Below, in pieces: positions 15,382 to 40,461 of a DNA stretch of 42,928 nucleotides. The translations under genes were made by a program, and so were the position numbers. The DNA comes from Sphingobacteriales bacterium (lineage in GTDB: Bacteria > Bacteroidota > Bacteroidia > Chitinophagales > Saprospiraceae). Every line of letters begins with the position of its first letter. Positions within the stretch are counted from its first letter, which is position 1. The notes below the pieces were generated by a model. The model was not told the DNA's origin. It worked only from the letters and a program-made list of their open reading frames with translations, and did not search any database. Location: positions 1 to 42,928 of the forward strand of contig OMKD01000127.1 of the NCBI GenBank assembly GCA_900299495.1. Reading direction: 5' to 3'.

Positions 15382-15873
15382 ATGTCTGACACAGAAAAGA
15401 AAAAAAAGAAAGGGCTGCTTCCCAAAACCGAATTAATAATCCTCATTGTCTTATTGGGATTCTTTGTTCTTTGGTCATTGAAGCAATGCTCTAATTCTAT
15501 AAAGCCAATAGAAGAAACACCTGTATTGTCTCAGGAAGATCAATCAGATTCTGTTGAAAATCAGCCTATAATTAGTGAATTACGAGTAGATACCTTTGAA
15601 ATTGTCAAAGAGGTGACTGCATTATATGTAAATATTAATAAACTTAAACTCCGATCCTCTCCAAACCTAAAGAGTGAGGTACTTGAAGAACTGGAAATAG
15701 GTTCTAAAGTAATGTTTGCTGGAGAGGTTACTGACAGTCTTTATACCTTCAGTCTTGGTAAAAGAGAAGTAACAGAACCCTATGTTAAAGTTAAGACCTG
15801 GAAAGGTTTAGAAGGTTGGGTTTATGGCGCTGGAGTAGACTATTACAAGAAGAAAGTAGAAGGTACCTATTAG
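15382..15873 (+). CDS. membrane-anchored bacterial SH3 (SH3b) domain protein
   Basis: The N-terminal Lys run is followed by a TM helix (LIILIVLLGFFVLWSL). The C-terminal SH3b pattern is LKLRSSPNLKSEVLEELEIGSKV...WKGLEGWVYGAGV. Confidence 0.75.
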   Translation: MSDTEKKKKKGLLPKTELIILIVLLGFFVLWSLKQCSNSIKPIEETPVLSQEDQSDSVENQPIISELRVDTFEIVKEVTALYVNINKLKLRSSPNLKSEVLEELEIGSKVMFAGEVTDSLYTFSLGKREVTEPYVKVKTWKGLEGWVYGAGVDYYKKKVEGTY

Positions 15874-15964: not shown

Positions 15965-17647
15965 ATGAAAGTCCAAAACCATCTCAATCTCAAAGGGACT
16001 TTTCAATTGTTAATAGCAATTGGATTATTTGGTTCCTTGTTCACCTTTTCTTCTTGTCAGCAAGAAAGCTCGGCAGATTGGTCACCAACTATTGCTGCAC
16101 CATTAGTAAATTCTACCCTTTCGGTTTCTAGTTTACTTGAACAATTAACAATGGACACTATGTTTAGTACAGACGATGAAGGTCTGTTGTCCGTGAATTA
16201 CAGAGCAGATTTATTTGATTATACGCCAAGTGAGGTATTCAATTTTGATTACGGCGGCGATCCAATACTTGGAGAGGTTGTAAACACACCTTTTGTAGAG
16301 AATTTAATTAATCAAAACGGTGAGTTTGAAGTTAATCTTCCAACCAGCGTGTTTACGTTCGATCCTAAAATTCAGGACGAGAATGTACCTGAGTTTGATG
16401 TGAAGATCGACTCCCTTTATTTATACAATACTTCTATTGTATTTAATTTCTCGAGTACTTTTGGTCATGCTGGGCGTATAAATATAGAGATACCACACTT
16501 GTATGATACAGAGGGGAATTCATTTGATGAAACGATTGAGTGGGATGAAGATGCTGATAATCCAATAACGGATTCTAACATTTTTGATCTGAATGGTTAT
16601 TTCTTGGATATGACTAAATCTGAGGAAAATGACACCATGTATAACAGATTTGATATTGATCTATCTGTTGTGGTTATGAATACTATTCCAAATTACGATA
16701 TAGAAGATGATGCAAGATTAGATTTCACTATCGAAGTTTCTAATATGGATTTTGAGCTTGCATATGGGGACTTTGGTCCTGGAAGCTTCTTACTTGGAAG
16801 AGATACAATTGCCTTCAATCCTTTTGAAGACATAAATAATGCAGACTTCTATCTTGCTGATCCTACTATTTCACTAGAGATCAATAGCGGTATAGGTTTT
16901 CAGCGTATGAATTCATTCGTTGATACTCTGGTATATGTTGATCCAGCGGGAGAAATTAACCAAATCCTTTTCAACCCTACGTCTATACAGCCGGAGATTA
17001 ATGCACCTCAAGAAGTTGGTGAATATGTAACAACCTTCTATAAGCTAACCAATGAGGATGGATATATTTCTGACTTATTATCCCCCATGGATAAAGATCT
17101 TATTTACGGGATACATGCTATTATCAATAGTAATGATGAAGATGAGCAGAGTTTTATTCATAGAGACCATGGGATTTCTGCAAGCTTGGATGTTGAAATA
17201 CCACTATATGGGCGAGTAGGAAATATTGAATTTAATGATACGCTAGAGTTTGATCTTGGTTCTCAGCTTTCGGAGATAGAGGATATGATTATTAAAACCA
17301 ATATGGAAAGTTATTTCCCTGTAAATGCTTATTTACAGGTTTATTTCTTGGATGAAAATTATGTCTTAACGGATTCTCTTTATGGCGCTGATTTTGATCT
17401 TCCTATCATTTCATCTCCGGAATTGAATGCAGAGGGAAGGCCTATTAATCAAGAGCCTGTCCTAACAACTAAAGAGGCAAGTCTGACATCTGAAACCATT
17501 GCAAATTTAGTTGAGAGTAAATATTTGGTATTGAATTATTCGTTCGAAACTTCAGAGTTTGATCAGGAGACCAATGTGAAAATCTTTGATGATTATTACA
17601 TAAATGCGAAAGTTGGCTTCCAGGCAACGGGTAAAATTGACTTTTAA
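15965..17647 (+). CDS. large lipoprotein of unknown function (560 aa)
   Basis: Lipoprotein signal LFGSLFTFSSC. The sequence is acidic and beta-rich. It lies 17 nt upstream of the barrel gene on the same strand. No family recognised. Confidence 0.75.
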   Translation: MKVQNHLNLKGTFQLLIAIGLFGSLFTFSSCQQESSADWSPTIAAPLVNSTLSVSSLLEQLTMDTMFSTDDEGLLSVNYRADLFDYTPSEVFNFDYGGDPILGEVVNTPFVENLINQNGEFEVNLPTSVFTFDPKIQDENVPEFDVKIDSLYLYNTSIVFNFSSTFGHAGRINIEIPHLYDTEGNSFDETIEWDEDADNPITDSNIFDLNGYFLDMTKSEENDTMYNRFDIDLSVVVMNTIPNYDIEDDARLDFTIEVSNMDFELAYGDFGPGSFLLGRDTIAFNPFEDINNADFYLADPTISLEINSGIGFQRMNSFVDTLVYVDPAGEINQILFNPTSIQPEINAPQEVGEYVTTFYKLTNEDGYISDLLSPMDKDLIYGIHAIINSNDEDEQSFIHRDHGISASLDVEIPLYGRVGNIEFNDTLEFDLGSQLSEIEDMIIKTNMESYFPVNAYLQVYFLDENYVLTDSLYGADFDLPIISSPELNAEGRPINQEPVLTTKEASLTSETIANLVESKYLVLNYSFETSEFDQETNVKIFDDYYINAKVGFQATGKIDF

Positions 17648-17664
17648 CATCCAATATCATTAAA

Positions 17665-19947
17665 ATGAAAAACTTCAAAATATATATACTAGCAAGTGTG
17701 TGCTTGCTAACTCAATTTTTTGCACATGGACAGCAGGATATGAACTTATATCAGTTCAGAGAACTAAACCAAAGTTCTTACCTGAATCCTGCATTTAGTG
17801 GAGATCATAAGGTTTCCATAGGTCTACCTGCGCTTTCTTCCTTTTATTTCGCCTATAACAATAATGCCTTCAGTGCAAGTGATATCTTATCTTCGGATTT
17901 GGACGTCAGCTTGAGCAAGGTTATAAACTTAGAAATTAGTACAAGTGAATTTGCGGATGCTTTAAGAAATCCAGCACAGATAACAAATTCACTTACAGAT
18001 AAGAATTATTTGATGACCAGCCTTCAGCTTGATTTGTTTCATTTGCAGATTAATAAGGGTCAGCATTCATTTGGATTTAACATCACAGAAAAGGTAAATG
18101 GAATGATTATTTTTCCTAAGAGTCTTTTTGAGTTGATTCAAAATGGAAATGGAGGTGAAAATCTAGGACAAACAATTTCCATCAATGGTCTTGGTCCTGA
18201 TTTTAATCACTATCGTGAATTCGGACTATCCTATGGCAGAACAGTAAATAGCAAGCTTACAGTTGGAGGTCGTTTTAAGATACTCAGCGGTATGGAAAAT
18301 GTGTCATTTTCTAAAAGCCACTTGGGATGGACAACAGATGAACTAGATTATAGCTGGGATATTACTGGATCATATGCACTAAATACCTCAGGTGTAAAAG
18401 GTGGAATGACTTTTGAAAATCTTCTAATGGGGAGAGGAAACAGAGGTTTCGGAATTGACTTGGGCGCTAGTTATAATCTGAATGATGATATTAATATTTC
18501 AGCTTCCATAACTGATCTTGGTTTCATCAATTGGTCGAATAATAACATGATTTATTCAACCGATGATTTCACATTTAACTATGATGGACTTGATCTTTTA
18601 CAATTAAATGATTCAACCGAGATAGGTGATTTAGTAACTGAAATTTATGAAAGTGCTATTGATTCCGTAAATGGCCAAATGGATTCTACTTCAGTTTATA
18701 CTACTAGACTACACCCTAGAGTAATGCTGGGAGCCAATTATAATGTGAATGAAAAGCTAAATGTTGGATTATTATTACATGGCCAATTTTATGGTCCTGT
18801 AACCAAGTATGGAGCTTCAGTTTCAGCGAACTATAAGGTGTTTAACGCATTATCTGCTATTGCCTCTTATACGGTTACTGATAAATCCTACAATAATGTA
18901 GGCTTAGGTATCATGTTTGATAAGAACCCTGTTCAGATTTATGCTGTAACTGATAATATATTAGGTCTTAAGCTTGAGAATACAAAAAACTTGCATGCAA
19001 GAGTTGGCGTTAACCTTACCTTCGGTAATAGAAACCCTAAACCGGTTGATAATAAGCTTACTAATGAAGCTGAGGCAATGTTAACCAGCAATGAAGAAGC
19101 TAATGAAATGCAAACGGATACGGTTGTGATTAGAGAAATCGAAGTGCTTCCTCCTGTTGAGGAGAAGCCAGCAGTGAAGGCTTCATTTGACTTATATGGA
19201 GAGGTTGTTGATGCAGAGACTAACCTCGAGTTGACGGGCATAATTGTGGAGGTATACAAGAAGGAGATTGGAGGTGTTGAAACTTTATCTTCAAATAGAC
19301 CATATAATTCAGGAAACTTCCTGAAGCAATTGGATCGTAATGCTATTCACAGAATCGTAATCAAGAAATCAGGTTATGAGGATGGTGAATTATTTGTATT
19401 CCCGGACGACATAGGTGATATGCCAGAATTAAGAGAGCTTATCATGCTTCAATCTAAAGAGATGAAGGTAGTAGAGGAATTACCAGAGACTACTTTGGTA
19501 TCTGCATATGAATTAACTTCAAGAACCAGTTTACGTGAAGAGGCAAGTTCTACTTCTGTTGTTTTAGAGCGTATTTCTGAAGGAACGCTTATGGAGCTTG
19601 TTGAAAAAACAAATAAGTACTGGTGGAAAGTTAATTTAAATGGAGTTGAAGGTTATGTAAAGGCTGCTTATTTGGTAGAATCAGATCAGCAAGTTTCTTC
19701 CTCTTCAAACGTAGAAACTCCGGTAAGAAATTATAGTTCCTCTTCATCAGAAATGGGAACAGGAAGCTATTATTTCCTTATCGAAAAGACGAGCCTAAGA
19801 GCAGAGGCAACTTCTTCTTCTGCAGTATTACTTAGGTTTGCAACTGGTGATGAGGTAGAACTTATCGACAAAACAAACAAGTACTGGTGGAAAGTAATCT
19901 TCAATGGTACGGTAGGTTATGTTAAAGCTGCTAAGCTAGAAGAATAA
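17665..19947 (+). CDS. PorP/SprF-like (or DUF5723-like) outer-membrane beta-barrel fused to an Ig-like (CarboxypepD_reg-like) domain and two SH3b domains
   Basis: A signal peptide is followed by QQDMNLYQFRELNQSSYLNPAFSG, which resembles the PorP/SprF N-terminal signature. About 430 aa of beta-strand-patterned sequence ends at ARVGVNLTFG. Next comes FDLYGEVVDAETNLELTGIIVEVY..., then two KTNKYWWKV...G.VGYVKAA.L SH3b units. Confidence 0.8.
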   Translation: MKNFKIYILASVCLLTQFFAHGQQDMNLYQFRELNQSSYLNPAFSGDHKVSIGLPALSSFYFAYNNNAFSASDILSSDLDVSLSKVINLEISTSEFADALRNPAQITNSLTDKNYLMTSLQLDLFHLQINKGQHSFGFNITEKVNGMIIFPKSLFELIQNGNGGENLGQTISINGLGPDFNHYREFGLSYGRTVNSKLTVGGRFKILSGMENVSFSKSHLGWTTDELDYSWDITGSYALNTSGVKGGMTFENLLMGRGNRGFGIDLGASYNLNDDINISASITDLGFINWSNNNMIYSTDDFTFNYDGLDLLQLNDSTEIGDLVTEIYESAIDSVNGQMDSTSVYTTRLHPRVMLGANYNVNEKLNVGLLLHGQFYGPVTKYGASVSANYKVFNALSAIASYTVTDKSYNNVGLGIMFDKNPVQIYAVTDNILGLKLENTKNLHARVGVNLTFGNRNPKPVDNKLTNEAEAMLTSNEEANEMQTDTVVIREIEVLPPVEEKPAVKASFDLYGEVVDAETNLELTGIIVEVYKKEIGGVETLSSNRPYNSGNFLKQLDRNAIHRIVIKKSGYEDGELFVFPDDIGDMPELRELIMLQSKEMKVVEELPETTLVSAYELTSRTSLREEASSTSVVLERISEGTLMELVEKTNKYWWKVNLNGVEGYVKAAYLVESDQQVSSSSNVETPVRNYSSSSSEMGTGSYYFLIEKTSLRAEATSSSAVLLRFATGDEVELIDKTNKYWWKVIFNGTVGYVKAAKLEE
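19495..19944 (+). repeat. tandem duplication encoding two SH3b domains (about 19495-19680 and 19762-19944)
   Basis: The protein units are TSLREEASSTSVVLERISEGTLMELVEKTNKYWWKVNLNGVEGYVKAAYL and TSLRAEATSSSAVLLRFATGDEVELIDKTNKYWWKVIFNGTVGYVKAAKL. The DNA shares AAAACAAAyAAGTACTGGTGGAAAGT. Confidence 0.75.
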
Positions 19948-19970: not shown

Positions 19971-20001
19971 AAAAGCCGCTCATTATTGAGCGGCTTTTTT
20001 T
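19971..20001. terminator. bidirectional rho-independent terminator between convergent genes
   Basis: A4, stem GCCGCTCA (19975-19982), loop TTAT, stem TGAGCGGC (19987-19994), then T7. The T-run overlaps the minus-strand stop at 20000-20002. Confidence 0.85.
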
Positions 20002-21157
20002 ATAGTTGATGTTGATAGTTTCCTATACAATCTTTAGTAATTCTTTTTGCTCGTAGGTAGGTTTCTAGTCTATTAGAAGCAAATCGTTTACTGTTAGGAT
20101 CTAGACTCTGAATACGAACTTCTCCCGAAGCATGAATAAAGTCTAAACCTCCAAGGTAAACAGCAACGTGGGTAACCTTTTCTTTTTGATCTTCTGTGGC
20201 TTTTCTTCCGAAGAATAATAGATCTCCTTTTTGAAGCTGATCAAAATTCTTATCGGTATTTACCGCTTCTCCACATCTGACTTGTTGAGAGGCGTCTCTT
20301 GGGAGTTCTATACCATGGAGGAGAAATAGGGTTTTGGTATATCCACTGCAATCAAAGCCCTTAGTGGTTGCGCCGCCCCAAACATATGGGATTCCCATGT
20401 AGTCTTTGGCAAGATCTAAAAGGGATTCCGTATCAATTTCCATATTTTCCCAATAAGATGTTTTCAAATACTTGGCATCCTTTACAAAACCCTCTTGGCC
20501 ATCAGGAAGCCTTATTTGTATGGTGTTTGATTTAGATTCTCCAAGGATGCTTACAATATTGGCAGCAACTAATTCTGTAATAACCTGTCCAGATTCATCA
20601 TATACATCTCTGTTTTTGTTTAGTAAAAATGCACGATCTGAATTTGTCCATTCTTCTAGGCCTTCTGCTGAGATAGGAATAAATGAGAGGGATTCCATCC
20701 ACCCTAAATAACCATCTACCAATTGTACGTAGAACCAGTCATCTTGTTTTTTTAGGATTTTAATTGGCTGTCCCAGCAAACCCTGACTAACTAATTCAGA
20801 AGAATGTTTGGGTTGACCTCGAAGTTGTGCAGTGGAAACACTAATTAATCCAAAAGGCTGCTCTATATCTTTTCCTGGAAGTAATTGTATCGTGTATTTT
20901 ATACCCTGTTTATTAAACATCTCCTGAATGGACTTCAAAGTCTCTTCATCTGACAATGTTCCAGACCATTCACCATTGTCGCCTTTGCTTACATCAAAGA
21001 CACAAACTCTTTTATCAGGGCAATCAGATAATCTAAGCTCTTCTATAAACACCCCTGCATCAAACGAAGATTTGCTTGTTTCTTGTTCCTGATCAACCGT
21101 ACAGGAAAAGATCAGACTGATTAATAAAAGCGGATAAATTATATATGTTTTACTCAT
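20000..21157 (-). CDS. NlpC/P60 (C40) peptidoglycan endopeptidase lipoprotein with N-terminal SH3b domain(s), YkfC-like architecture
   Basis: Lipoprotein signal LISLIFSC. SH3b pattern is AQLRGQPKHSSELVSQGLLGQPIKILKKQDDWFYVQLVDGYLGWM. The catalytic Cys block is GFDCSGYTKTLF and the His block is THVAVYLG. Confidence 0.9.
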   Translation of the reverse strand: MSKTYIIYPLLLISLIFSCTVDQEQETSKSSFDAGVFIEELRLSDCPDKRVCVFDVSKGDNGEWSGTLSDEETLKSIQEMFNKQGIKYTIQLLPGKDIEQPFGLISVSTAQLRGQPKHSSELVSQGLLGQPIKILKKQDDWFYVQLVDGYLGWMESLSFIPISAEGLEEWTNSDRAFLLNKNRDVYDESGQVITELVAANIVSILGESKSNTIQIRLPDGQEGFVKDAKYLKTSYWENMEIDTESLLDLAKDYMGIPYVWGGATTKGFDCSGYTKTLFLLHGIELPRDASQQVRCGEAVNTDKNFDQLQKGDLLFFGRKATEDQKEKVTHVAVYLGGLDFIHASGEVRIQSLDPNSKRFASNRLETYLRAKRITKDCIGNYQHQL

Positions 21158-22706
21158 TGGTCTTGATGATTTTTATGCTGGTTTCTGTATTTGTTGTTCT
21201 AATATGGATGAAATATACACCTGCTTTCCAGTTTTGAGTTTCGATAGTCAGGTCTTTATTAAATTCATTTACAGCATTGTATATAGTTCTGCCTTGTGTA
21301 TCTAAAATAAGGATATTGGCATATTCTTCTTTATAATTGGTGATTTTTATATAATCATTAAACAGACTTGGATATACTTTTATTCCTTCTAACTTCTCAT
21401 TGTTTGAGGTGGATGTAGTTACTTCAACTTGAGCGATATTAGAATAAATGGATGTGTCTTGTTGGTTTGCAGCTAATACTCTGTATTCCAATACATCTGA
21501 ATTTACTGGTATATCATCTTCGAAACTCGTATTGTCTGTGCCATTAGTTGCAATAGGGTAAAAATATGCACTGTTTTCTTCTTTTCTTTCAATTATAAAA
21601 GTGGTTTCGTTATCGGATTGATCTGTCCAGTTAAGTGTGACTGTGTTGGGGTTAGTTAAAGCTGCATAGAGTTGAACGGGAGGTAGAATGTTTCCACAGG
21701 AATTCTCGATTTCGTATGAAATGCTATCTCTTAAACTAGGAAGAAGCGCATAAAGCATATCTCCAGGACATGCAGTTGCACATCCATCTTGATGACCAGA
21801 TACCACAAATAATTCCTCATCAGAAGGAGGATGGTATGATATACTTGTAGGATCCAGGTTTTCCTGGCAAGATTTCCACGCAAATAATCTTTTAAGCGTC
21901 TCCATAGACTGAGGTTTTGGATCTACATCTGTATAGGTACCAAGTATGCAGATACCCATTGTATTTCCATTTTTACCACAGAAGTGAGCGCCTTGTATAT
22001 TGTCAGCGCGTCCTTCGTAAATCACTCCATTAGGATCAATCAACCAATTGTATCCAATATCATCCCATCCATTGGTATTCACATGATAATTCCAGATTGA
22101 ATAGACTACTGCTGACCAGTCTGATGAGGTGTTGGCACCTGCGGTATGGTGCACAATGAGATGACTAACTTCCGTAATAATTGGAGTTATATCTACTGGA
22201 CAGTTTCCGTTTTGACACCATTGGTCTCTTCCTTTAAATGATGGCTGAGGGCAGGGGCAATCTCCCGAGGTTTTAGAATGGCGTACAGTAGGCAGTCCTT
22301 TTACAGATCGTTCTGGATAGAATAGATGTATTTCATCGTTGGAATCTACTGTATAGTTATTCAACTTTAGTTGAATTTTTTGAATGGAGTTTGGCAGAAA
22401 TATTAAGCTACTGATGTCTTGGCTTAAATCGGTATTGTGTATATCATTTGAAAGGTAAGACCAGGCTGACCAAGCGTTATCAGTCAAGTATCTATACTGG
22501 ATTTTATGAATACTATTTTTTTTGGTTTTTATGGCTAGCGTTACAAATGGGGATTCGTCCGCATCTGCGCGCAATGGTAAGTCTACAAAAGATCCATTGG
22601 TGGAAGTTTCCAAAGAAGACAAATCAGTGATGGACATCCTGTTTGAGTCTTGTCCAAAAAGAATGAGACTAAAAGACATCAGGCAAAAAAGAAAAAGGGA
22701 TTTCAT
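21150..22706 (-). CDS. N-acetylmuramoyl-L-alanine amidase (Amidase_2/PGRP type) with an FN3 domain and a type-A T9SS C-terminal sorting domain
   Basis: Signal peptide MKSLFLFCLMSFSLILFGQ. Amidase_2 blocks are LIVHHTAG, IGYNWLIDPNGVIYEGR and GHQDGCATACPG. The FN3-like block is VTLNWTDQSDNETTFIIERK. The Por_Secre_tail-like end is KVYPSLFNDYIKI...GVYFIHIRT. Its stop overlaps the next gene's start in ATGAGTAA. Confidence 0.9.
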   Translation of the reverse strand: MKSLFLFCLMSFSLILFGQDSNRMSITDLSSLETSTNGSFVDLPLRADADESPFVTLAIKTKKNSIHKIQYRYLTDNAWSAWSYLSNDIHNTDLSQDISSLIFLPNSIQKIQLKLNNYTVDSNDEIHLFYPERSVKGLPTVRHSKTSGDCPCPQPSFKGRDQWCQNGNCPVDITPIITEVSHLIVHHTAGANTSSDWSAVVYSIWNYHVNTNGWDDIGYNWLIDPNGVIYEGRADNIQGAHFCGKNGNTMGICILGTYTDVDPKPQSMETLKRLFAWKSCQENLDPTSISYHPPSDEELFVVSGHQDGCATACPGDMLYALLPSLRDSISYEIENSCGNILPPVQLYAALTNPNTVTLNWTDQSDNETTFIIERKEENSAYFYPIATNGTDNTSFEDDIPVNSDVLEYRVLAANQQDTSIYSNIAQVEVTTSTSNNEKLEGIKVYPSLFNDYIKITNYKEEYANILILDTQGRTIYNAVNEFNKDLTIETQNWKAGVYFIHIRTTNTETSIKIIKTNE

Positions 22707-32265: not shown

Positions 32266-32284
32266 CTCGTTTAGATTGATATAC

Positions 32285-35200
32285 ATGAGTGTCCAAAATC
32301 GATTTCTATTAGTACTACTCTTACTGGTAAGTATGACTTTCAATTCACTGAAAGCTCAATTCTCTATTGAATATATGGGATTTACTGAGTTTTATTTGGA
32401 TTCAAATTGCTCAGATATTTTTGATTTGGGTGGTGTTTTGCCCACTGTCAGTTCTACCGTTCCGGGAGCTGTAATTACTGTAGATTCATTAGATACAGGT
32501 CTTACAGGCTATGCATTGAATGATATTATTATTGGGCAAGACACTATAGATGTTTATTTCCGGTATGAAGATGATCAGAACAATGACAGTTTGTTTGTTT
32601 TTCAAGTATTTTTCTTAGATACCATTCCTCCTGTGCTTCAACTGGAAAGAGATACTGTCTACCTGCTATGTGAAAACGAATTACCAGAATTGTCGAGTTA
32701 TATTGTTGAGGATAATTGTGATGTAGCCGGAGGAACAGTTCTGATCTATGATCCCTTACAGACTTTGCCCGAGTACAATTGTGGAACTGCTCAAATTGAG
32801 GTTACTAGTTATATTTATGCAGTAGATTTCTATGGGAATCAGGATACATTGATTCAGACCGTTTTTATGGGCACTGATACAGTAGCTCCTACGGCGATTG
32901 TTCCAAATGATACCATCATTAATTGTATCGATGATTTAGACGCCTTATTAGCTATTGGGCTAACTGATAGTTATGATAATTGCGGCTCATCAAACTTTTC
33001 TATTGATACTTCATCTCAGATTACAAGTGGTAGCTGCTCCAATGATCTTACATACAAAAGATATTGGACATTAATTGATTCTTGTGGAAATGTAACTGTA
33101 GATTCTCAGATGATTACCATAGTGGATGATTTACCACCTGTATTTAATAGTCCATTGGATACATTAGTTAATTGTGGTACGGATATGGATCCTTCCTCTT
33201 TAGGCAGCCCTTCCACTATTTTTGATGAATGTTCTGGTGTATTTGAAGTTCAGTACCAGGATGTATTTGATACTTTAAATTGTCCAGATTTATATTTGTT
33301 GACAAGAATCTGGACAGTTTCTGATAGTTGTCAAAATATTGCTCTGGATACACAGCACATACAAATTATAGACACATTGGCTCCTTTATTTACAGATCCA
33401 TTGATTGATAGTATTTACCTACAATGCAATCAATTGGATTCATTGGATGCTATAGTAGGACCTTTTGACCTAACAGATGAGTGTACTGGTTTTAATACAG
33501 ACACTATAGATTTAATAATTAATCAAACATGTACTAATACCTATGAAATAGAACGCACTTTTTTCGTGGAAGATGAATGTTCAAATAGAGATAGTACAAA
33601 GGTCTGGATTTTTGTTACAGATTCTATTGCTCCTATAATTACAACCGCAGGGTCGGATTTGACGGTATCCTGTACCTCAGGAGTAAATTTAGATTCTATT
33701 TTTCAAGCTTGGATTAATAATCACGCTGGAGCTACAGCGGCTGACGCCTGTAGTCAAGCTCAGGATTTAACGTGGGCGGTATTTAATTCTGGTACTTCTA
33801 ACCCTGCCATATTGGATGCATTTTCTTGTGATATTACTGCTGGAGTCTTGCTAGATCAATCTATAGACTTTGTTGTAGAGGATGAATGTGGCAATCAAAG
33901 ATTGTTTACAAGGAATTTTATCTTAACAGATACCGAGGAGCCGATTATTACATTTTGTGGTGAAGATATTGTTGAGATTGCTGAACCTGGTATTTGTGGT
34001 GCAACTGTAAATTTGCCTGCTCCATTTGCCATGGACGAATGTCAATCAAGAGATACGATCATAAATGTGTCGCAGCTTGAAAATTTGCTATCCAATGGTG
34101 ATCCACAATCTATACTTTTTGATTTAGCTTTTTCTATAGCTGTTCCTAATACTAGTGTAAGTCCTACTAGTGATATTACCCTTGAGATCTTACTTGAAAA
34201 TGTGGATGCTGAAGGCCCTGAGGAATTTATGACTATACTAGGTGAGGACGGCACCCAATTAGGGATTACTGCAGCTGCAGATATGCAATGTGGTACCTCT
34301 TTAACACAGCTCACTATTCCAATGCTCCAATACATAGATTGGGCCATTGATGGAACGATCCAGATTACCTTGCAACCCAATATTCCAGCTAACCTTATCG
34401 ATGGAATAAATCCGATATGCCCTGTTCAGCCAACTGCCAGTATTTCATTGAATTATAATGCTACTTTCAGCGAGGACTTAAGTTATTCTTTTTCCTTGAA
34501 TAATATGGATTATGAGTTAATCGATGCTTCAGGAATTGGCAGTGCATTTTTTGAGGTAGGAATGCATACAGTAAGCTTTAGAGTCGAAGATTGTGTTGCA
34601 AATGTTACAACTTGCACAAACACTATAGAAATAATTGATACAGAGGCTCCAACGCTAAGTTGTGCGCCCAACAAAGAAGTATTTTTACCTGCGGACAGTT
34701 GTCAAATAGAGACAGTTTTAGACTTACCTCTTAATATTGAGGACAATTGTAGCCCAGGAATATTGAATATCGTTAGTAGCGATAATCAGTTCATTCCATA
34801 TACGCTTAATTCAAATCTCGGGGTATACGTAGCGGATACTGTTTTGATAAGTTTTGAAGGAATATCCTCTAACCAAACAGGTACAGCTAATCTTCAGATA
34901 AATCTATTGGGAGATGTTGACCAAGCTGGAGAATACTTTACTGTTATGACAACGGATGGGTCAATAATAGGAACAACCGAAATAGGTGGAACAAATGTAA
35001 CTTCAGGTTCTTGTTCGGAAGCATCCTTTATTGAATTACCTATTGATGAAAATATTATTCAATCAAACCTAAGTGGAGGTATTCTTACTCTTCAATTGAT
35101 TTCAAATAATCCATTTATACCAGGCAGTGATGCAAATGGCATTAACCCTTGCGACTCTCTTTTATTGATAAATGGAGTGCAAATTGATTCTGTTTCTGAG

Positions 35201-38200
35201 TTGTCAGCAGCTTTAAGCTATAGCACTTGGGACTTATCATATTTTATACCAGACTTAGGGATTTCGAATACAGTTATTGATGATATCAGTCAAGCGTACT
35301 CCACAATATTTAATGCAGGAGAAAATACCGTGTTTTACACTGCTACAGACGCTTATGGAAACGCAGACACCTGTTCATATCTGATTGAAGTTACAGATAC
35401 TATCAATCCTGTAATGAACTGTGTTCCTTTTACGAATATATCATTTAATAGTCTTGATCTTGTACCAATGCCCCTGGATGTAAGTCCGTTTGACAATGGT
35501 AGTTTTGATAATTGTGCTTTGAGTACTTTGCATATATCGCCAGCAGAGATAAATTGTTCAGATGCAAGCAATGGCTCGGTAATAATTACTTTGACAGGAA
35601 CAGATGAATCTGGAAATACGGCATCATGTACTAGTGAACTTGTGATTCAGGAAACACCATTGGATCCGGTATATGCCGCAATATGTGATGGAGATACCCT
35701 GTTAAACGTAGTTAATGTCTGTTTAGGGGATAGTTTGTTCTTAATGTCAAATGTATCAGGACCAAATACAAATCTTTTGAGTTTTGAGTGGATTAATCCC
35801 ATTGGTGAGACAATAGCAATAGGTACAAATCCAGCGATTCCAATTACGGACGGAGTGGATTATAATGGGGTTTATTCCTTAGTGGTGACAGGACCAAATT
35901 CCTGTACAAAGACTTCCACGTTTAGCGTAAGTGTTTCTGATTTGGAAATCCCTGAGATTCAAGCTTCAATTACCGGATTAATTTGTGAAGGAGCTAATAT
36001 AGATCTAAGTGTTTTAAATTATGCAGGAGTTTCAGATGTGACCTATGTATGGTACGAGGGAGATGAAATAGGATTAGGTGATTCTATTTCAACGACTAGT
36101 TCACCAACCTTGAATTTAGGAGATGAATTAGAACCAGGGGAGCATTGCTACTATGTTAAGGTTTTTACAGACTGTTGCTCAGAGATTTCCATGTTTACCT
36201 ATTGCCTGGAAATTGTTAGCCAACCCCTTGTAACCTTGCAGGATGAGCTTATCCAACTTTGTGAATTTGATGATCTTGAATTGGCAGTTGTACAAACGAG
36301 TAACAACCCCAATTGGGTATATGAATGGACAGGACCAGGTATTCCTTCAGGAACTACTGGAGCATCTGTTACGATTGAAGATTATAGTCCAAATACGGCG
36401 GGTATTATCACGATAGTATTACAGGTGTATGATGAAAACCTTACTTCTTGTGCCATTACTCCATTAGAGTTATCTGTAGATTTACTTGAGAAACCTGCAA
36501 CACCAATTTTAAATATAGACAATACTTTAGTCTGCGAAGGTGCTGAGATAGGCTTTGAGATAAGTGGGGACTTGACGGGAGTAACTTCATTTGAGATTAT
36601 CGGAGATAATACTAATCTTTTTGTATCAGCAGACGAGATCTATACATTGAATCCTGTAGAATTATCGGATGCGGGCAATTATTTTGCAGTGTCAATAGGG
36701 AATGGATGTCAGTCAGATCCATCAAATGCTATAGGTTTAACTATAAATCCGGATCCAGTAGCTGAAATCATATCAGCTGATGAAATTTGTTCTTCACAGA
36801 ATACCTATGACTTGGAGGCTAGTCTACAGCCGGGACTAAATTACACATGGGCGCTGCCCGACGGGACAGAGGAGAATGGATTTACTGTTCCAATAACTAA
36901 TCCTGTTTCAGGGGATTACATTCTTGAGGTCAATAGTGGCTTTCCTGGTTGTATAAACTATGATACTTTGGGGTTAGTTATTAATGAGAATCCTGAAGTA
37001 TTAGTTATAAATGATAATGTACCCGATTGTTATCCAGGACCTAATTTTGAACTTATTGTATCTTACGAAAGTGATCCATCAGATAATTTAGATCAGGAAT
37101 GGAGTTTTGACGATTTGACTAGTTCAGACCCTGAACTAATTATTCAAAATCCGGGGGAAGAATATACCGGTGTATATACTTTAGAATTAATAGATCCTTC
37201 GACAAATTGTAGAGATACAATGTCTGTTTTTCTTGAGATACCCTTAGAATTAGAGATTCCTAATGCTCCATTTACTCAGGTTGAAGATTATGTATTCTGT
37301 GAGGGGGATACGGTACTTTTTCAAACAAATAATTTTATAAATATTTCCCAATACAACTGGAATTTTGGGGAAGGAGAACTTGTGTTGAATACGGCACAGC
37401 TTAATCTGCAGCTTATAGATATCAGTAATTTTGATTTTGGTACGGTAAAAGTTCAGTACGTTACTGATGAAGGTTGTGTATCAGGATTTTCTGCTTTAAG
37501 GGAATATGAGGTTATTTATTTGCCTGAACTTGAGGTTGATTATGAGAATTCAGTTTGTGCTAATTCTGCTATAGAATTATCTATGATAAATTGTTTTAAT
37601 TTTCCTTCTTCTGGTGTTTTAAGCTGGGAACTTCCTGATGGTGATATTCAAAATAATACTTGTCAAATATCTGATGTTCAATCTGTTAGTGGTTTGTATT
37701 TCTATATGTATAAGTACGTGCAAGATGGTTGCGAATCTGATATAGATAGTGTTTCGGTATTTGTGAAACCTTTACCTGAATTAGTAGACTTACAAACTCC
37801 ATTTGATTCTATTTGCTTAGCTACGGAACCTATCGATTTATCTCTTGAAAATGCTCAACCAGGAATAGACTATGCTTTATGGGTAAATGATTTAATATTC
37901 AGCGATTTTAACGGATCTCCAGGCCCTACTAATTGGGCTATTCCTATTAATTCATTGCCTCCTATGAGCGAAGAGGTATATTCATTTGAATTATTGGGAT
38001 CTCTTGATGGCTGCTTTACTGAAGACACTTCTTTCTTAGAGATTTCTGTTTTTAGTGAGCCTATAATAAACGCAAATATTGATCCAGAGATATTTAGATA
38101 CTGCGAGAGTCAGGATTCATTTAATTTGATAGCGACAAATGTAATACAAGATGGCCTTTCTGGAATGTGGTCTTCGGTAAACTCAATAGATCCAATATTT

Positions 38201-39379
38201 GTAAATGCACAATCTCCTAATACTAGAGTAACTGGATTAGATTCACGGGAGTATTATGATTTTGTATGGAGTCTTAGCTATGGGGCCTGTGAAGATTATA
38301 GTCAGGATACAGTATCTCTTTATATAGCCATTGAGCAGGAGGCGATGACTAGATCGGATATTGATACTTGTTTATTAGAATCGTTGTTTATCACAGCAAA
38401 TCCCTCTGAAAATATAGGAGAACCTGGATATTGGACTCAGCCAAATGGTCAAGATGCTGAATTTGCTTCTCCGAATTCTCATTTTACGAGTGTAGGTATG
38501 TTCGGTAATCAAACGGAGTTAGTGTTCATTTGGGAGTTTCCTGATTATGGATGTGGAGCATCTTCAGATACATTAAATGCCAGACTTTTGAATGATTTTC
38601 CAATGGTTGAGGAGAATTTTGTTTCTGATTGTGGAGATGGCTCGCATATGCTAAATGGGATTGAGCCTATGGATTATGTTGGCTTGTGGAGTTCTCCGGA
38701 TCCTAATATTGTCTTTGACAATGAGAATCTACACAACACTACTGCACATAACATGGTGGAAGGACAGAATATCTTTTATTATGAATTTCTAAATGGTATT
38801 TGCGGGGAGGCGTACAGGGAAGAACTTATTGTTGACTATACATTTACTCCTACAGCTGTCGATGATAATGTATTTCTAGAGTTTGCTGGTACTAATGTAT
38901 TGATTGATGTTCTGGTAAACGATTTTAATGCAGATACGGACTTGGATGAGCTTGTTATTGTCACAGAGCCAAAACATGGTGTGGTGATTCTTGAGCAGAA
39001 TACTTTTCGTTATTTCTCTGATCAAAATCATGTTGGGCTAGATTCATTCAAATACGAGATGATTAGTAAACAATGTGGGAATAGCAGTATAGGAACCGTT
39101 CGCATAAACATTGGAGAAAACTCAGAGTGTGATTTTATTCCTAATATTATTACACCGAATGATGACGGATTTAATGATGAATTTATCATTCCATGTTTAC
39201 CTAATTTTCCAGAAAATACAGTTCAGATATTTAATATATGGGGAGATAAGGTGTTCGAGGCTGAAGGTTATGAAAATGATTGGAAGGCCGATTTGTTGCC
39301 AACTGGGACCTATTATTACGTAGTCAGATTTTCTCCTGATTCAGAGGAGGTCATTGGTTTTTTACATATTCAACGATAA
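32285..39379 (+). CDS. giant (~2360 aa) cell-surface repeat protein: HYR-like and Ig-like repeats, a cadherin-like module, and a type-B T9SS (gliding motility-associated) C-terminal domain
   Basis: Signal peptide MSVQNRFLLVLLLLVSMTFNSLKAQ. At least 10 HYR-like units carry the pattern xDxCxN ... C ... I.V.D...P. The second half has Cys-framed Ig-like units (CEGA.I.L, CEGDTVLF). A cadherin-like block follows (VDDNVFLEFAGTNVLIDVLVND). The last 84 aa (39125-39376) are IPNIITPNDDGFNDEFII...IFNIWGDKVFE...LPTGTYYYVV, matching the Bac_Flav_CTERM (TIGR04131) pattern. A TTG at 32276 is an alternative start. Confidence 0.92.
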   Translation: MSVQNRFLLVLLLLVSMTFNSLKAQFSIEYMGFTEFYLDSNCSDIFDLGGVLPTVSSTVPGAVITVDSLDTGLTGYALNDIIIGQDTIDVYFRYEDDQNNDSLFVFQVFFLDTIPPVLQLERDTVYLLCENELPELSSYIVEDNCDVAGGTVLIYDPLQTLPEYNCGTAQIEVTSYIYAVDFYGNQDTLIQTVFMGTDTVAPTAIVPNDTIINCIDDLDALLAIGLTDSYDNCGSSNFSIDTSSQITSGSCSNDLTYKRYWTLIDSCGNVTVDSQMITIVDDLPPVFNSPLDTLVNCGTDMDPSSLGSPSTIFDECSGVFEVQYQDVFDTLNCPDLYLLTRIWTVSDSCQNIALDTQHIQIIDTLAPLFTDPLIDSIYLQCNQLDSLDAIVGPFDLTDECTGFNTDTIDLIINQTCTNTYEIERTFFVEDECSNRDSTKVWIFVTDSIAPIITTAGSDLTVSCTSGVNLDSIFQAWINNHAGATAADACSQAQDLTWAVFNSGTSNPAILDAFSCDITAGVLLDQSIDFVVEDECGNQRLFTRNFILTDTEEPIITFCGEDIVEIAEPGICGATVNLPAPFAMDECQSRDTIINVSQLENLLSNGDPQSILFDLAFSIAVPNTSVSPTSDITLEILLENVDAEGPEEFMTILGEDGTQLGITAAADMQCGTSLTQLTIPMLQYIDWAIDGTIQITLQPNIPANLIDGINPICPVQPTASISLNYNATFSEDLSYSFSLNNMDYELIDASGIGSAFFEVGMHTVSFRVEDCVANVTTCTNTIEIIDTEAPTLSCAPNKEVFLPADSCQIETVLDLPLNIEDNCSPGILNIVSSDNQFIPYTLNSNLGVYVADTVLISFEGISSNQTGTANLQINLLGDVDQAGEYFTVMTTDGSIIGTTEIGGTNVTSGSCSEASFIELPIDENIIQSNLSGGILTLQLISNNPFIPGSDANGINPCDSLLLINGVQIDSVSELSAALSYSTWDLSYFIPDLGISNTVIDDISQAYSTIFNAGENTVFYTATDAYGNADTCSYLIEVTDTINPVMNCVPFTNISFNSLDLVPMPLDVSPFDNGSFDNCALSTLHISPAEINCSDASNGSVIITLTGTDESGNTASCTSELVIQETPLDPVYAAICDGDTLLNVVNVCLGDSLFLMSNVSGPNTNLLSFEWINPIGETIAIGTNPAIPITDGVDYNGVYSLVVTGPNSCTKTSTFSVSVSDLEIPEIQASITGLICEGANIDLSVLNYAGVSDVTYVWYEGDEIGLGDSISTTSSPTLNLGDELEPGEHCYYVKVFTDCCSEISMFTYCLEIVSQPLVTLQDELIQLCEFDDLELAVVQTSNNPNWVYEWTGPGIPSGTTGASVTIEDYSPNTAGIITIVLQVYDENLTSCAITPLELSVDLLEKPATPILNIDNTLVCEGAEIGFEISGDLTGVTSFEIIGDNTNLFVSADEIYTLNPVELSDAGNYFAVSIGNGCQSDPSNAIGLTINPDPVAEIISADEICSSQNTYDLEASLQPGLNYTWALPDGTEENGFTVPITNPVSGDYILEVNSGFPGCINYDTLGLVINENPEVLVINDNVPDCYPGPNFELIVSYESDPSDNLDQEWSFDDLTSSDPELIIQNPGEEYTGVYTLELIDPSTNCRDTMSVFLEIPLELEIPNAPFTQVEDYVFCEGDTVLFQTNNFINISQYNWNFGEGELVLNTAQLNLQLIDISNFDFGTVKVQYVTDEGCVSGFSALREYEVIYLPELEVDYENSVCANSAIELSMINCFNFPSSGVLSWELPDGDIQNNTCQISDVQSVSGLYFYMYKYVQDGCESDIDSVSVFVKPLPELVDLQTPFDSICLATEPIDLSLENAQPGIDYALWVNDLIFSDFNGSPGPTNWAIPINSLPPMSEEVYSFELLGSLDGCFTEDTSFLEISVFSEPIINANIDPEIFRYCESQDSFNLIATNVIQDGLSGMWSSVNSIDPIFVNAQSPNTRVTGLDSREYYDFVWSLSYGACEDYSQDTVSLYIAIEQEAMTRSDIDTCLLESLFITANPSENIGEPGYWTQPNGQDAEFASPNSHFTSVGMFGNQTELVFIWEFPDYGCGASSDTLNARLLNDFPMVEENFVSDCGDGSHMLNGIEPMDYVGLWSSPDPNIVFDNENLHNTTAHNMVEGQNIFYYEFLNGICGEAYREELIVDYTFTPTAVDDNVFLEFAGTNVLIDVLVNDFNADTDLDELVIVTEPKHGVVILEQNTFRYFSDQNHVGLDSFKYEMISKQCGNSSIGTVRINIGENSECDFIPNIITPNDDGFNDEFIIPCLPNFPENTVQIFNIWGDKVFEAEGYENDWKADLLPTGTYYYVVRFSPDSEEVIGFLHIQR
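34045..34423 (+). repeat. copy 1 of an unassigned ~130-aa module inserted between HYR units of the giant protein
   Basis: ...ITLEILLENVDAEGPEEFMTILGEDGTQLGITAA..C......LTIP.....DWAIDGTIQITLQPN....LIDGINPICP. It aligns by eye with copy 2. Confidence 0.5.
34751..35165 (+). repeat. copy 2 of the unassigned ~130-aa module
   Basis: ...ANLQINLLGDVDQAGEYFTVMTTDGSIIGTTE....C......IELP.....SNLSGGILTLQLISN....DANGINPCD. Confidence 0.5.
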
Positions 39380-39390
39380 AGTAAGAGCAT

Positions 39391-40341
39391 ATGAAGAAGA
39401 TATTAACAGCAATTTATTGCCTGATCTGCTTAGGGGCTTTTGCTCAGCAGGAGTCCTTGACATCAAATTTTATGATGAACAAGTTGTATTACAACCCTGG
39501 GTTTGTAGTTGAAGAGAAATCACCAGTTGTAGTCGCTCAGGTGCGTGCTCAGTGGTTGGGGGTAGATGGTGCACCCAATATGCAAAAAGTCAGTTTTTCT
39601 ATGCCCTTCCTGAATAATCGAGTAGGCGGAGGATTGACGATCAGTAACTTTAAAGCGGGAATCACATCTGAACAAACGGTTAGTGCTATATATGGATATC
39701 GCCTTCGATTCGGGAGAGGTAGTTCAATGCTTATGGGTCTTAACCTGGATCTCAATTCGTATGGAGTGGATTATTCTGATGAGCGATTAGTTTCTATACA
39801 TCCTTTGGGTGAAGATCTTAGTATCCCTGGAGGATTTCAAAATAAATTTTTGTTCAACGTAGGTCTTGGAGCATATTTTAGTGCAGAGAATTTTTATATG
39901 GGCTTTTCTGTTCCGGGTATGATTGAAGAAAATATAGAGTTTATACCAGAGGAATCAGGGCTTAGCCAGGGAGTAAGACACTTTTACTTTATGGGAGGTG
40001 CAAATTTCGATCTGAAAAAAGGAAGTTCTCTTCAACCAAATCTATTGGTGCGTTATGTTTCAGAAGCTTATTTGAATCTGGAGCTCAACTTAATGTACAA
40101 TATTGAGGACAAATTATATTTAGGAGCTACTTATAGAAATGGAGGACTCAATTTTGGACTTATAGAGTCGGCAAATATCATCATTGGTACTTACTTGTCT
40201 CCTAAGACGATGTTAGCAGTAAGCTATGATATCACCTTGAGTTCAATAAGTAATTATAGTGCGGGATCTTTTGAACTTATGATTAAATACAGAGCATTGA
40301 AAAAAGAGAGTAAACGAATCGGAAATCCTCGATTCATGTAA
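39391..40341 (+). CDS. PorP/SprF-family type IX secretion system membrane protein
   Basis: Starts 11 nt after the giant gene. The signal peptide is followed by QQESLTSNFMMNKLYYNPGF. RAQWLGVDGAPN and NRVGGGL blocks are typical of TIGR03519/PorP_SprF. 316 aa. Confidence 0.9.
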   Translation: MKKILTAIYCLICLGAFAQQESLTSNFMMNKLYYNPGFVVEEKSPVVVAQVRAQWLGVDGAPNMQKVSFSMPFLNNRVGGGLTISNFKAGITSEQTVSAIYGYRLRFGRGSSMLMGLNLDLNSYGVDYSDERLVSIHPLGEDLSIPGGFQNKFLFNVGLGAYFSAENFYMGFSVPGMIEENIEFIPEESGLSQGVRHFYFMGGANFDLKKGSSLQPNLLVRYVSEAYLNLELNLMYNIEDKLYLGATYRNGGLNFGLIESANIIIGTYLSPKTMLAVSYDITLSSISNYSAGSFELMIKYRALKKESKRIGNPRFM

Positions 40342-40461
40342 GTCTAATCGTTAATTCTATATAAAATTTTTAGTTTTTTGTATTTCAAAGAGACTTAGTT
40401 GCGTTATATAAAATTATATATAAGTATATTAAACAACTTCTGAAGTTCAAAATCAAACTAA

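Follow-up and report, generated by a model that had tools for sequence, protein, structure and literature searches.

A 42,928-nt stretch of contig OMKD01000127.1 of a Sphingobacteriales bacterium (Saprospiraceae; assembly GCA_900299495.1; positions 1 to 42,928), which is taken here as the window, carries two adjacent genes that encode a lipoprotein of 560 residues and a predicted β-barrel protein of 760 residues with a putative wall-binding tail (Table 1). Both open reading frames (ORFs) and the gap between them are confirmed as first annotated. The barrel is a full-length member of the DUF5723 family, and its pairing with a lipoprotein encoded directly upstream is conserved across Bacteroidota. 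The literature that was searched holds passing mentions of DUF5723 only and, within that incomplete search, the pair is undescribed, although an earlier description under another name is possible. The fusion of barrel and tail is not an assembly artefact, since eight protein clusters and five other contigs show the same architecture at 58–97% identity.

The 760-residue product begins with a signal peptide followed by QQDMNLYQFRELNQSSYLNPAFSG and by approximately 430 residues of barrel sequence ending in …VGVNLTFG, after which come a β-sandwich and two SH3b domains; this order of parts had been read from the sequence by the initial annotation and is borne out by Pfam and by an AlphaFold2 (AF2) model. 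PF18990 (DUF5723) matches residues 42–430 over model positions 1–376 of 376 (E = 1.4e-80; 272 bits against a gathering cut-off of 26.8). The initial annotation had labelled the barrel PorP/SprF-like, listing DUF5723 as an alternative. It is the alternative that stands, the N-terminal ∼450 residues scoring with DUF5723 and folding as a barrel in the model, whereas neither PF11751 nor TIGR03519 matches at a limit as loose as E ≤ 1; with these two models the PorP/SprF gene at 39391 of the window reaches 193 and 212 bits, respectively, under identical search conditions. Membership of PorP/SprF was rejected on the evidence of Pfam, NCBIfam, and hhalign, the last whether signal peptides were kept or removed. 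An hhalign comparison of 67 DUF5723 with 31 PorP/SprF sequences aligned 48 columns only, comprising the signal peptide and a QQ…NPA segment (95% probability), and after removal of the signal peptides the best alignment between the families fell to 4–5% probability. The QQ…NPA segment is genuinely conserved in each family (Q23, N41, and P42 in DUF5723; Q19, Q20, N35, and P36 in PorP/SprF). A glutamine after the signal peptidase site is common in Bacteroidota and the NPA motif is a hallmark of the FadL hatch, and together these offer the better explanation of the N-terminal resemblance. The likeness is thus a trait of the wider fold class and is not specific to PorP/SprF; PorV and PorP-like proteins have likewise been described as 14-stranded FadL-family barrels (PMC9143113). 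Because the barrel lies outside PorP/SprF, the fusion does not deliver the Rosetta-stone inference initially drawn from it, namely that PorP/SprF barrels work physically with a wall anchor. Nor does the finding bear on the PorP–PorE question, which has already been settled experimentally, a PorE–PorP–PG1035 complex and the binding of PorE to peptidoglycan both having been published (PMC9143113, PMC7192894).

The AF2 model, built from a 67-sequence alignment, has a mean predicted local distance difference test score (pLDDT) of 80. Its strand list fits a barrel of 14 to 16 strands in which short turns alternate with long loops, and a Brachyspira DUF5723 protein has been modelled with 16 strands in a preprint. 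The strands within residues 113–224 are very long (17–27 residues), which would raise a tall wall on the extracellular side, and an even number of strands would place the C-terminal tail in the periplasm. In a Foldseek search of the Protein Data Bank (PDB), the best matches to the barrel were FadL-family channels, namely TodX (3brz, E = 5e-7), TbuX, and FadL (3dwo, 2r4l), and CymD and the BamG proteins of Flavobacterium johnsoniae (9n2d_B, E = 9e-7) and Bacteroides thetaiotaomicron (9hiv_F) were also matched. The predicted barrel superposes on this fold with a moderate match (E = 5e-7 to 3e-4, probability 1.0, target-normalized template modelling scores of 0.36–0.46). At the sequence level, a DUF5723 profile run against PDB sequences returned an OmpA match to the tail and TbuX at E = 0.11, and did not recover BamG. 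PF03349 (FadL/Toluene_X) has no Pfam match in the 760-residue window protein, and in the relative P0098 it reaches E = 2.7e-6 (26.6 bits, below the cut-off of 29.7). DUF5723 is accordingly treated as a separate sequence family with a predicted FadL-type fold. Across the 67 DUF5723 proteins P42 never varies, and conservation reaches at least 90% at Q23, Q36, and N41; the window protein carries the NPA motif as N41-P42-A43, with short modelled helices around it at residues 26–30 and 35–39, and the segment may be read as a FadL-type hatch or plug. The most conserved motifs of the barrel itself are GNxGFGxDLG (257–267) and DLGFINW (284–290).

Beyond the barrel, the immunoglobulin-like domain that had been called CarboxypepD_reg-like is modelled as a seven-strand sandwich, and this part of the call stands; its family is less secure, as residues 500–602 have no Pfam match at E ≤ 5. 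An iterative search ties the sandwich to the equivalent domains of P0115 and P0057, and residues 453–523 of the latter reach 24.3 bits with PF13620 (E = 4e-5), short of its cut-off of 32.3, so that a CarboxypepD_reg-like identity is plausible but not established. The two SH3b domains are firmer, with SH3_3 (PF08239) matching in two stretches of the full protein at E = 9e-19 and 67.9 bits, or 73.9 bits on the tail alone. Structural matches to the modelled SH3 tail include the wall-binding SH3b repeats of YrvJ (9a7d_A), Psm endolysin (4krt_A), and NlpC proteins (6biq). Together with the barrel, even-stranded in the model, these fold matches agree with the periplasmic, wall-binding type of tail first proposed. 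The two domains are 60% identical to one another and unlike the SH3 domains encoded by neighboring genes, which points to an internal duplication; an origin from those genes (15382–15873 and 20000–21157) was considered and rejected on the same grounds.

Conservation of the gene pair was assessed in a one-genome-per-species scan that used a 14-sequence alignment and detected barrel relatives at 424 loci. The 80 most similar to the window protein were analysed and, with loci from exact-protein look-ups, amount to 84 barrel genes in 83 non-duplicate loci. Synteny of lipoprotein and barrel, a survey of which had been suggested as a check on the initial annotation, is near-universal in this set: in 82 of 84 cases a lipoprotein homologue, with an hmmsearch E-value between 1e-30 and 1e-210, immediately precedes the barrel gene in the same orientation. 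The spacing over the 82 loci has a median of 17 nt (range −44 to 159), with 27 gaps that are 3 nt or shorter or overlapping. L035 and L054 depart from this order, the former with its homologue displaced to 690 nt upstream and the latter cut off by a contig end. Carriers of the pair include Saprospiraceae/Lewinella, Flavobacteriales (Crocinitomicaceae, Vicingaceae, Lishizhenia, and Owenweeksia), Bacteroidales/Rikenellaceae, and Cytophagales (Cyclobacteriaceae). Owenweeksia hongkongensis (L004; CP003156.1, 1071–9386) has two divergently arranged pairs of 694 + 415 and 527 + 461 residues, the second barrel being very divergent, with E = 4e-13 against the family profile. Some distant DUF5723 proteins (25–27% identity) also retain the partner, as in L090 (E = 4e-103) and L088 (E = 9e-81); such distant carriers include P0107, an SH3-fused barrel at 25% identity (E = 4e-103). 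On this gene order the lipoprotein counts as a true conserved partner of the barrel, and it is not a T9SS (type IX secretion system) cargo.

The C-terminal tail is far more variable than the pairing. OmpA_C, usually after TSP_3, is carried by 39 of the 84 barrels, an outcome of the search for barrel–OmpA_C fusions that had also been suggested; 33 have no tail, six have SH3b, and six have other extensions of 97–231 residues with no assigned domain. The six SH3b barrels are the window protein and its 59–73% identical relatives, which form a Saprospiraceae-like clade whose closest non-SH3 relatives are DUF5723 + TSP_3 + OmpA fusions. P0080 has a SPOR tail (22.5 bits, for a cut-off of 21), and there are single SH3_3 domains in P0057, P0107, and P0115, the last with the same barrel–sandwich–SH3 order as the window protein. 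In a rough neighbor-joining tree of the barrel domain the tail states are interspersed, with the window clade as one branch. The initial suggestion that SH3b replaces OmpA_C is therefore to be kept in altered form: judged by domain composition, SH3b takes the place of OmpA_C within the DUF5723 family, where OmpA_C, SPOR, and SH3b occupy the same position, and not within PorP/SprF. The presence of three unrelated peptidoglycan-binding modules at one position is a strong sign that the tail lies in the periplasm and takes hold of the wall; its patchy distribution shows that wall anchoring is accessory to, and not the core of, barrel and lipoprotein function. A split version of the barrel–OmpA fusion exists inside the family. 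In L069 (63–4050), genes for a lipoprotein (cut by the contig end), a tail-less DUF5723 protein, and a 695-residue PorE-like PD40 + OmpA protein follow one another with gaps of 2 nt and 5–6 nt, and in Owenweeksia (L004) a PorE-like TPR/PD40/OmpA gene adjoins the DUF5723 pairs, the barrel again being tail-less.

The partner lipoprotein carries the lipoprotein signal …LFTFSS-C31-QQE and is matched by no model of Pfam or NCBIfam, TIGR04131 included, which implies that it has no T9SS C-terminal domain (CTD) and agrees with its first description. The same searches assigned no family to any of 27 lipoproteins scanned (the window protein and 26 others, including variants of 690–710 residues), and a lipoprotein profile run against PDB sequences found nothing. 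The family is nonetheless large, a profile of 18 sequences recovering 5,837 clusters at 50% identity (E ≤ 1e-3), of which 2,897 at E ≤ 1e-30. In pairwise blastp the window lipoprotein matches that of L002 at 1.5e-45 and the two Owenweeksia paralogues at 4e-11 and 1e-10. Its AF2 model (pLDDT 77) consists almost entirely of strands and is matched by Foldseek to jelly-roll-type sandwiches and to 4h3w; BamH is not among the 50 best matches listed. The lipobox cysteine is present in 69 of 69 distinct homologues and is followed by a conserved segment, C-[VIT]-K-D-[NY]-F-[ED]-[FL]-D-K, with a CT[DE]DYFEFD subgroup. Bacteroidota surface lipoproteins carry the export signal C-X-K-(D/E)2, in which ‘KD’ alone is weak (PMC5080379), and a rule applied to surface lipoproteins in work on the BAM complex requires at least two acidic residues among the first six after the cysteine (PMC12578637). 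This rule holds for 50 of 64 family members, while the window protein (CQQESSAD) has one such residue; surface exposure is therefore likely for the family and uncertain for the window member.

Table 1. Coordinates of the lipoprotein–barrel locus and of neighboring genes in the window.
Feature	Position	Strand	Basis and remarks
Partner lipoprotein gene	15965..17647	+	ORF, 560 residues; all-β, several sandwich domains (predicted); large family without Pfam model
Lipoprotein signal peptide and lipobox (…FSS-C31)	15965..16057	+	From sequence; mature N-terminus CQQESSADWSPT
17-nt intergenic spacer	17648..17664	+	Between lipoprotein and barrel ORFs
DUF5723 barrel gene with linker, β-sandwich, and two SH3b domains	17665..19947	+	ORF, 760 residues; Pfam and AF2
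Mature barrel N-terminal segment, residues 23–47, QQ…NPA	17731..17805	+	Conservation and AF2; read as possible FadL-type hatch/plug
Predicted transmembrane β-barrel, residues 48–455	17806..19029	+	PF18990, residues 42–430; AF2 strands; Foldseek; FadL-type, 14 to 16 strands
Disordered acidic linker, residues 456–499	19030..19161	+	AF2 pLDDT <50 at 462–499
Seven-strand β-sandwich spacer, residues 500–600, possibly CarboxypepD_reg-like	19162..19464	+	AF2 fold at 507–595, pLDDT 85–96
SH3b domain 1, residues 612–675	19498..19689	+	SH3_3 and SH3_4 matches; AF2 strands 614–672; Foldseek
SH3b domain 2, residues 698–758	19756..19938	+	SH3_3; AF2 fold at 701–754; 60% identical to domain 1
12-bp GC-rich palindromic hairpin	19971..19998	.	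Hairpin scan; between convergent barrel and NlpC/P60 genes; likely bidirectional terminator
163-residue SH3 protein gene	15382..15873	+	N-terminal membrane anchor and one SH3_3; 91 nt upstream of lipoprotein gene
NlpC/P60 lipoprotein gene	20000..21157	-	SH3 domains; convergent on the cassette
Amidase_2 protein gene	21150..22706	-	T9SS type A sorting domain; 8-nt overlap with NlpC/P60 gene
Complete T9SS type B module	32276..42531	+	2,367-residue adhesin-like protein (TIGR04131, 35.3 bits), PorP/SprF, PD40 + CarboxypepD_reg + OmpA protein

The lipoprotein and barrel genes are probably co-transcribed. No terminator-like hairpin was detected in the spacer between them, and the palindrome downstream of the barrel gene likely closes the transcription unit. 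Terminator-like hairpins within coding sequence, at 17318–17339 and at 17688–17711 (in the signal peptide region at the start of the barrel gene), are taken as chance matches, five having been found against 2.7 expected. A scan for sigma-70 promoters gave no more sites than shuffled sequences do, Bacteroidota promoters being outside the model of that scan.

Among the genes around the pair, all-against-all clustering of neighbors over the 83 loci found only two to be recurrent, a DUF3352 gene (30–33 loci) and an RNase HII-like gene (33 loci); neither qualifies as a universal third gene. The DUF3352 gene immediately precedes that of the lipoprotein in the same orientation, with a gap of −8 to 243 nt in 28 loci, and its product of ∼900 residues combines an N-terminal membrane anchor with the DUF3352 domain and a BamB/PQQ-like β-propeller. 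It occurs mostly with OmpA-tailed barrels (for example L002:3446–6193, L017, L028, L067, and L072) and is absent from the window; a DUF3352 profile found no PDB relative, and no mention of the gene turned up in the literature. Its place is occupied in the window by the gene for the 163-residue SH3 protein, which is kept in close relatives (63–78% identity) and whose SH3 domain is unrelated to the SH3b domains of the barrel. On the other side of the pair, the Amidase_2 protein would reach the cell surface by export and act there as a wall amidase. Since the whole 15-kb neighborhood is syntenic in close relatives, and not common to other clades, synteny of the NlpC/P60, amidase, and SH3 protein genes with the pair is no guide to a functional link. 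Among close relatives (L001 and L006–L009), the lipoprotein is 50–70% and the barrel 59–73% identical, and flanking housekeeping genes such as those for release factor and lipoyl synthase are 92–97% identical. The type B module elsewhere in the window, with which the barrel gene had first been compared, is as described at the time (TIGR04131, PF11751, and TIGR03519 matches); its PD40 + CarboxypepD_reg + OmpA protein resembles PorE and CHU_0125 in sequence, scoring 270 of 600 and 332 of 620 bits, respectively, below both equivalog cut-offs.

The reading that we regard as probable, if by no wide measure, is that the pair constitutes a conserved two-component outer membrane module of Bacteroidota in which a barrel-held lipoprotein is tied to the cell wall. 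In this model, the DUF5723 barrel would sit in the outer membrane with both ends facing the periplasm. From its C-terminus in the window clade, a flexible linker of ∼40 residues and the sandwich spacer would allow the two SH3b domains to reach the wall and bind it non-covalently, a role that TSP3 + OmpA_C or SPOR may take at the same position in other lineages, where the tail is not dispensed with altogether. The cognate lipoprotein of β-sandwich domains would be made in step with the barrel and held by it, probably at the cell surface, through its conserved lipidated N-terminus. The model follows two precedents, the holding of BamH by BamG and that of type B cargo by PorP/SprF, with PorE as the tie to the wall. 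The net result would be a lipoprotein–barrel complex fixed to peptidoglycan, serving as a tether between outer membrane and wall or as load-bearing surface display. We infer the contact between lipoprotein and barrel, the surface exposure, the peptidoglycan binding, and the physiological role from four lines: the two proteins are strictly co-encoded, the N-terminus of the lipoprotein is conserved, a FadL-type fold is predicted for the barrel, and the tails are of wall-binding kinds.

Several observations weigh against this model. The near-universal pairing holds for the subfamily that was surveyed, that is, for the loci nearest the window protein, and the distant DUF5723 proteins of L086 (7001–9148), L087 (7001–8923), and L089 (835–2649) are orphans without an upstream partner lipoprotein; their tails are sandwich + SH3_3 or SPOR. 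Approximately 40% of the barrels are tail-less and the tail states are scattered over the tree. Only one of the six residues that follow the cysteine is acidic in the window lipoprotein, and C-x-K-D-N, the motif most frequent in the family, resembles the weak ‘KD’ signal and not the optimal K-(D/E)2, which keeps a periplasm-facing lipoprotein in consideration. The conserved NPA hatch motif, finally, fits a transport role as well.

Transport leads to the best-surviving alternative, which we nevertheless consider unlikely: the barrel would be a FadL-type uptake channel for hydrophobic or amphipathic molecules, for which the lipoprotein captures substrate following the logic of SusC–SusD, with the tail only stabilizing or positioning the channel. 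The predicted FadL-type fold, the invariant P42 and near-invariant N41 of the NPA segment, and the below-threshold Toluene_X match in P0098 are all in keeping with such a role, and the lipoprotein sandwiches, modelled as jelly-rolls resembling carbohydrate-binding modules, could bind a ligand. Yet NPA is conserved also in PorP/SprF, which is no transporter, and the fold has been turned to the holding of proteins in Bacteroidota, as seen in BamG, PorV, and PorP. Neighbor clustering found no conserved catabolic or regulatory genes beside the pair, and we know of no characterized FadL channel with a peptidoglycan-binding tail.

Slightly less probable again is a purely periplasmic function in envelope integrity, whereby the lipoprotein would face the periplasm like PorE or Pal and, with the tail, link the outer membrane to the wall without any surface display. 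The poor fit of the window lipoprotein to the export signal points this way, as does the predicted position of GNxGFGxDLG and DLGFINW at periplasmic strand ends, and the tails are all of a periplasmic wall-binding kind. Against this, the acidic-residue rule for surface lipoproteins holds for 50 of 64 homologues, the ‘CTDDYFEFD’ subgroup resembles SDDFE, the export consensus of F. johnsoniae SusD, and both lipoprotein and barrel diverge much faster than their flanks, as surface proteins often do.

The view taken by the initial annotation, that of a T9SS accessory in which a PorP/SprF-type barrel with a fused wall anchor receives or anchors secreted cargo, now appears improbable. It could draw on the QQ…NPA segment common to both families, on the general fold class of PorP-like proteins (PMC9143113), and on gene context: PorE-like genes adjoin tail-less DUF5723 genes in L004 and L069, the orphan of L086 has among its neighbors two proteins with T9SS type A sorting domains, and the Porphyromonas gingivalis DUF5723 protein Q7MT24 is listed beside the T9SS CTD protein Q7MT25 (PMC12937337), their UniProt accessions being adjacent. 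However, no Pfam or NCBIfam model of a T9SS component, PF11751 and TIGR03519 included, matches either lipoprotein or barrel at E ≤ 1, the bodies of the two kinds of barrel fail to align (the 4–5% probability given above), the partner is a lipoprotein without a CTD in 82 of 82 pairs, and lipoproteins get to the outer membrane by a route other than T9SS. Least credible of all is a dedicated exporter, with the barrel as a private conduit for its lipoprotein across the outer membrane (compare Slam–TbpB), as the strict one-to-one gene pairing, a FadL-type lateral opening that could in principle pass a lipid anchor, and the still unknown mechanism by which Bacteroidota flip surface lipoproteins (PMC11885536) are set against the existence of orphan barrels and the lack of any obvious need for a wall anchor.

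If the model of a wall-tied, barrel-held lipoprotein is correct, it would add to the outer membrane of Bacteroidota a component that is widespread, strictly co-encoded, and in many cases joined to a wall-binding domain. That membrane is of unusual build: it has many surface lipoproteins, and both T9SS and the BAM (β-barrel assembly machinery) complex employ FadL-fold barrels as docking platforms. That OmpA_C, SH3b, and SPOR stand in for one another at a single position is a clear natural experiment and indicates that the tail simply serves to grip the cell wall. A more ambitious proposal may be offered tentatively. PorV is the holder of type A cargo, whereas PorP/SprF holds type B cargo and is connected to peptidoglycan through PorE (PMC9143113, PMC7192894); DUF5723 barrels might form, after PorV, PorP/SprF, and BamG, a fourth class of FadL-fold protein holders, each docking and perhaps delivering to the surface one member of the large lipoprotein family, with swappable OmpA_C, SH3b, or SPOR wall anchors and, in about one-third of lineages, joined by the inner membrane-anchored DUF3352/β-propeller protein into an undescribed envelope-spanning apparatus.

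Among the closest known parallels is the PorP/SprF system with its type B cargo and PorE, in which a barrel reported as a 14-stranded FadL-family fold likewise has its partner encoded just upstream (PMC9143113, PMC7192894). The DUF5723 pair would share with it a tie to peptidoglycan through a sandwich and a wall-binding domain, and the N-terminal QQ…NPA segment is common to both. The sequence families differ, however, the DUF5723 barrel being ∼430 residues long and that of PorP/SprF ∼300; the DUF5723 partner is a lipoprotein without a CTD; and the putative wall binder is fused to the barrel and consists of SH3b, whereas PorE is a separate lipoprotein with OmpA_C.

In BamG–BamH, a FadL-fold barrel also acts as a lipoprotein platform, the conserved lipidated N-terminus of BamH being wedged against the BamG barrel, and the paralogous BamG2–BamH2 are encoded together in a putative operon (PMC12611786, PMC12578637). 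BamG was among the best structural matches to the modelled DUF5723 barrel (9n2d_B). Unlike that barrel, BamG has no wall-binding tail, and nothing ties the DUF5723 pair to BamA. Sequence homology to BamG, BamH, or solved structures was sought and set aside; profile searches of PDB sequences returned no BAM chain for barrel or lipoprotein, the OmpA tail and the TbuX match already mentioned being all that was found.

The FadL, TodX, and TbuX channels (PF03349) are the best overall structural matches and have in common with DUF5723 the N-terminal NPA segment and weak sequence signals. The window protein differs in having no PF03349 match, and in having a fixed lipoprotein partner and a putative peptidoglycan-binding tail. 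OmpA and Pal tethers are comparable by domain architecture only, in that an N-terminal barrel precedes what would be a periplasmic wall-binding domain, although the predicted DUF5723 barrel is large and FadL-like whereas that of OmpA is 8-stranded, and OmpA_C is replaced by two SH3b domains in the window clade. The TSP3 + OmpA_C tail of the commonest DUF5723 fusion (L002:8001–10460) scores 154 bits in four stretches against NF033763, the model for Myxococcus TraB, a likeness that is confined to the tail; TraB is itself co-encoded with a surface partner, TraA.

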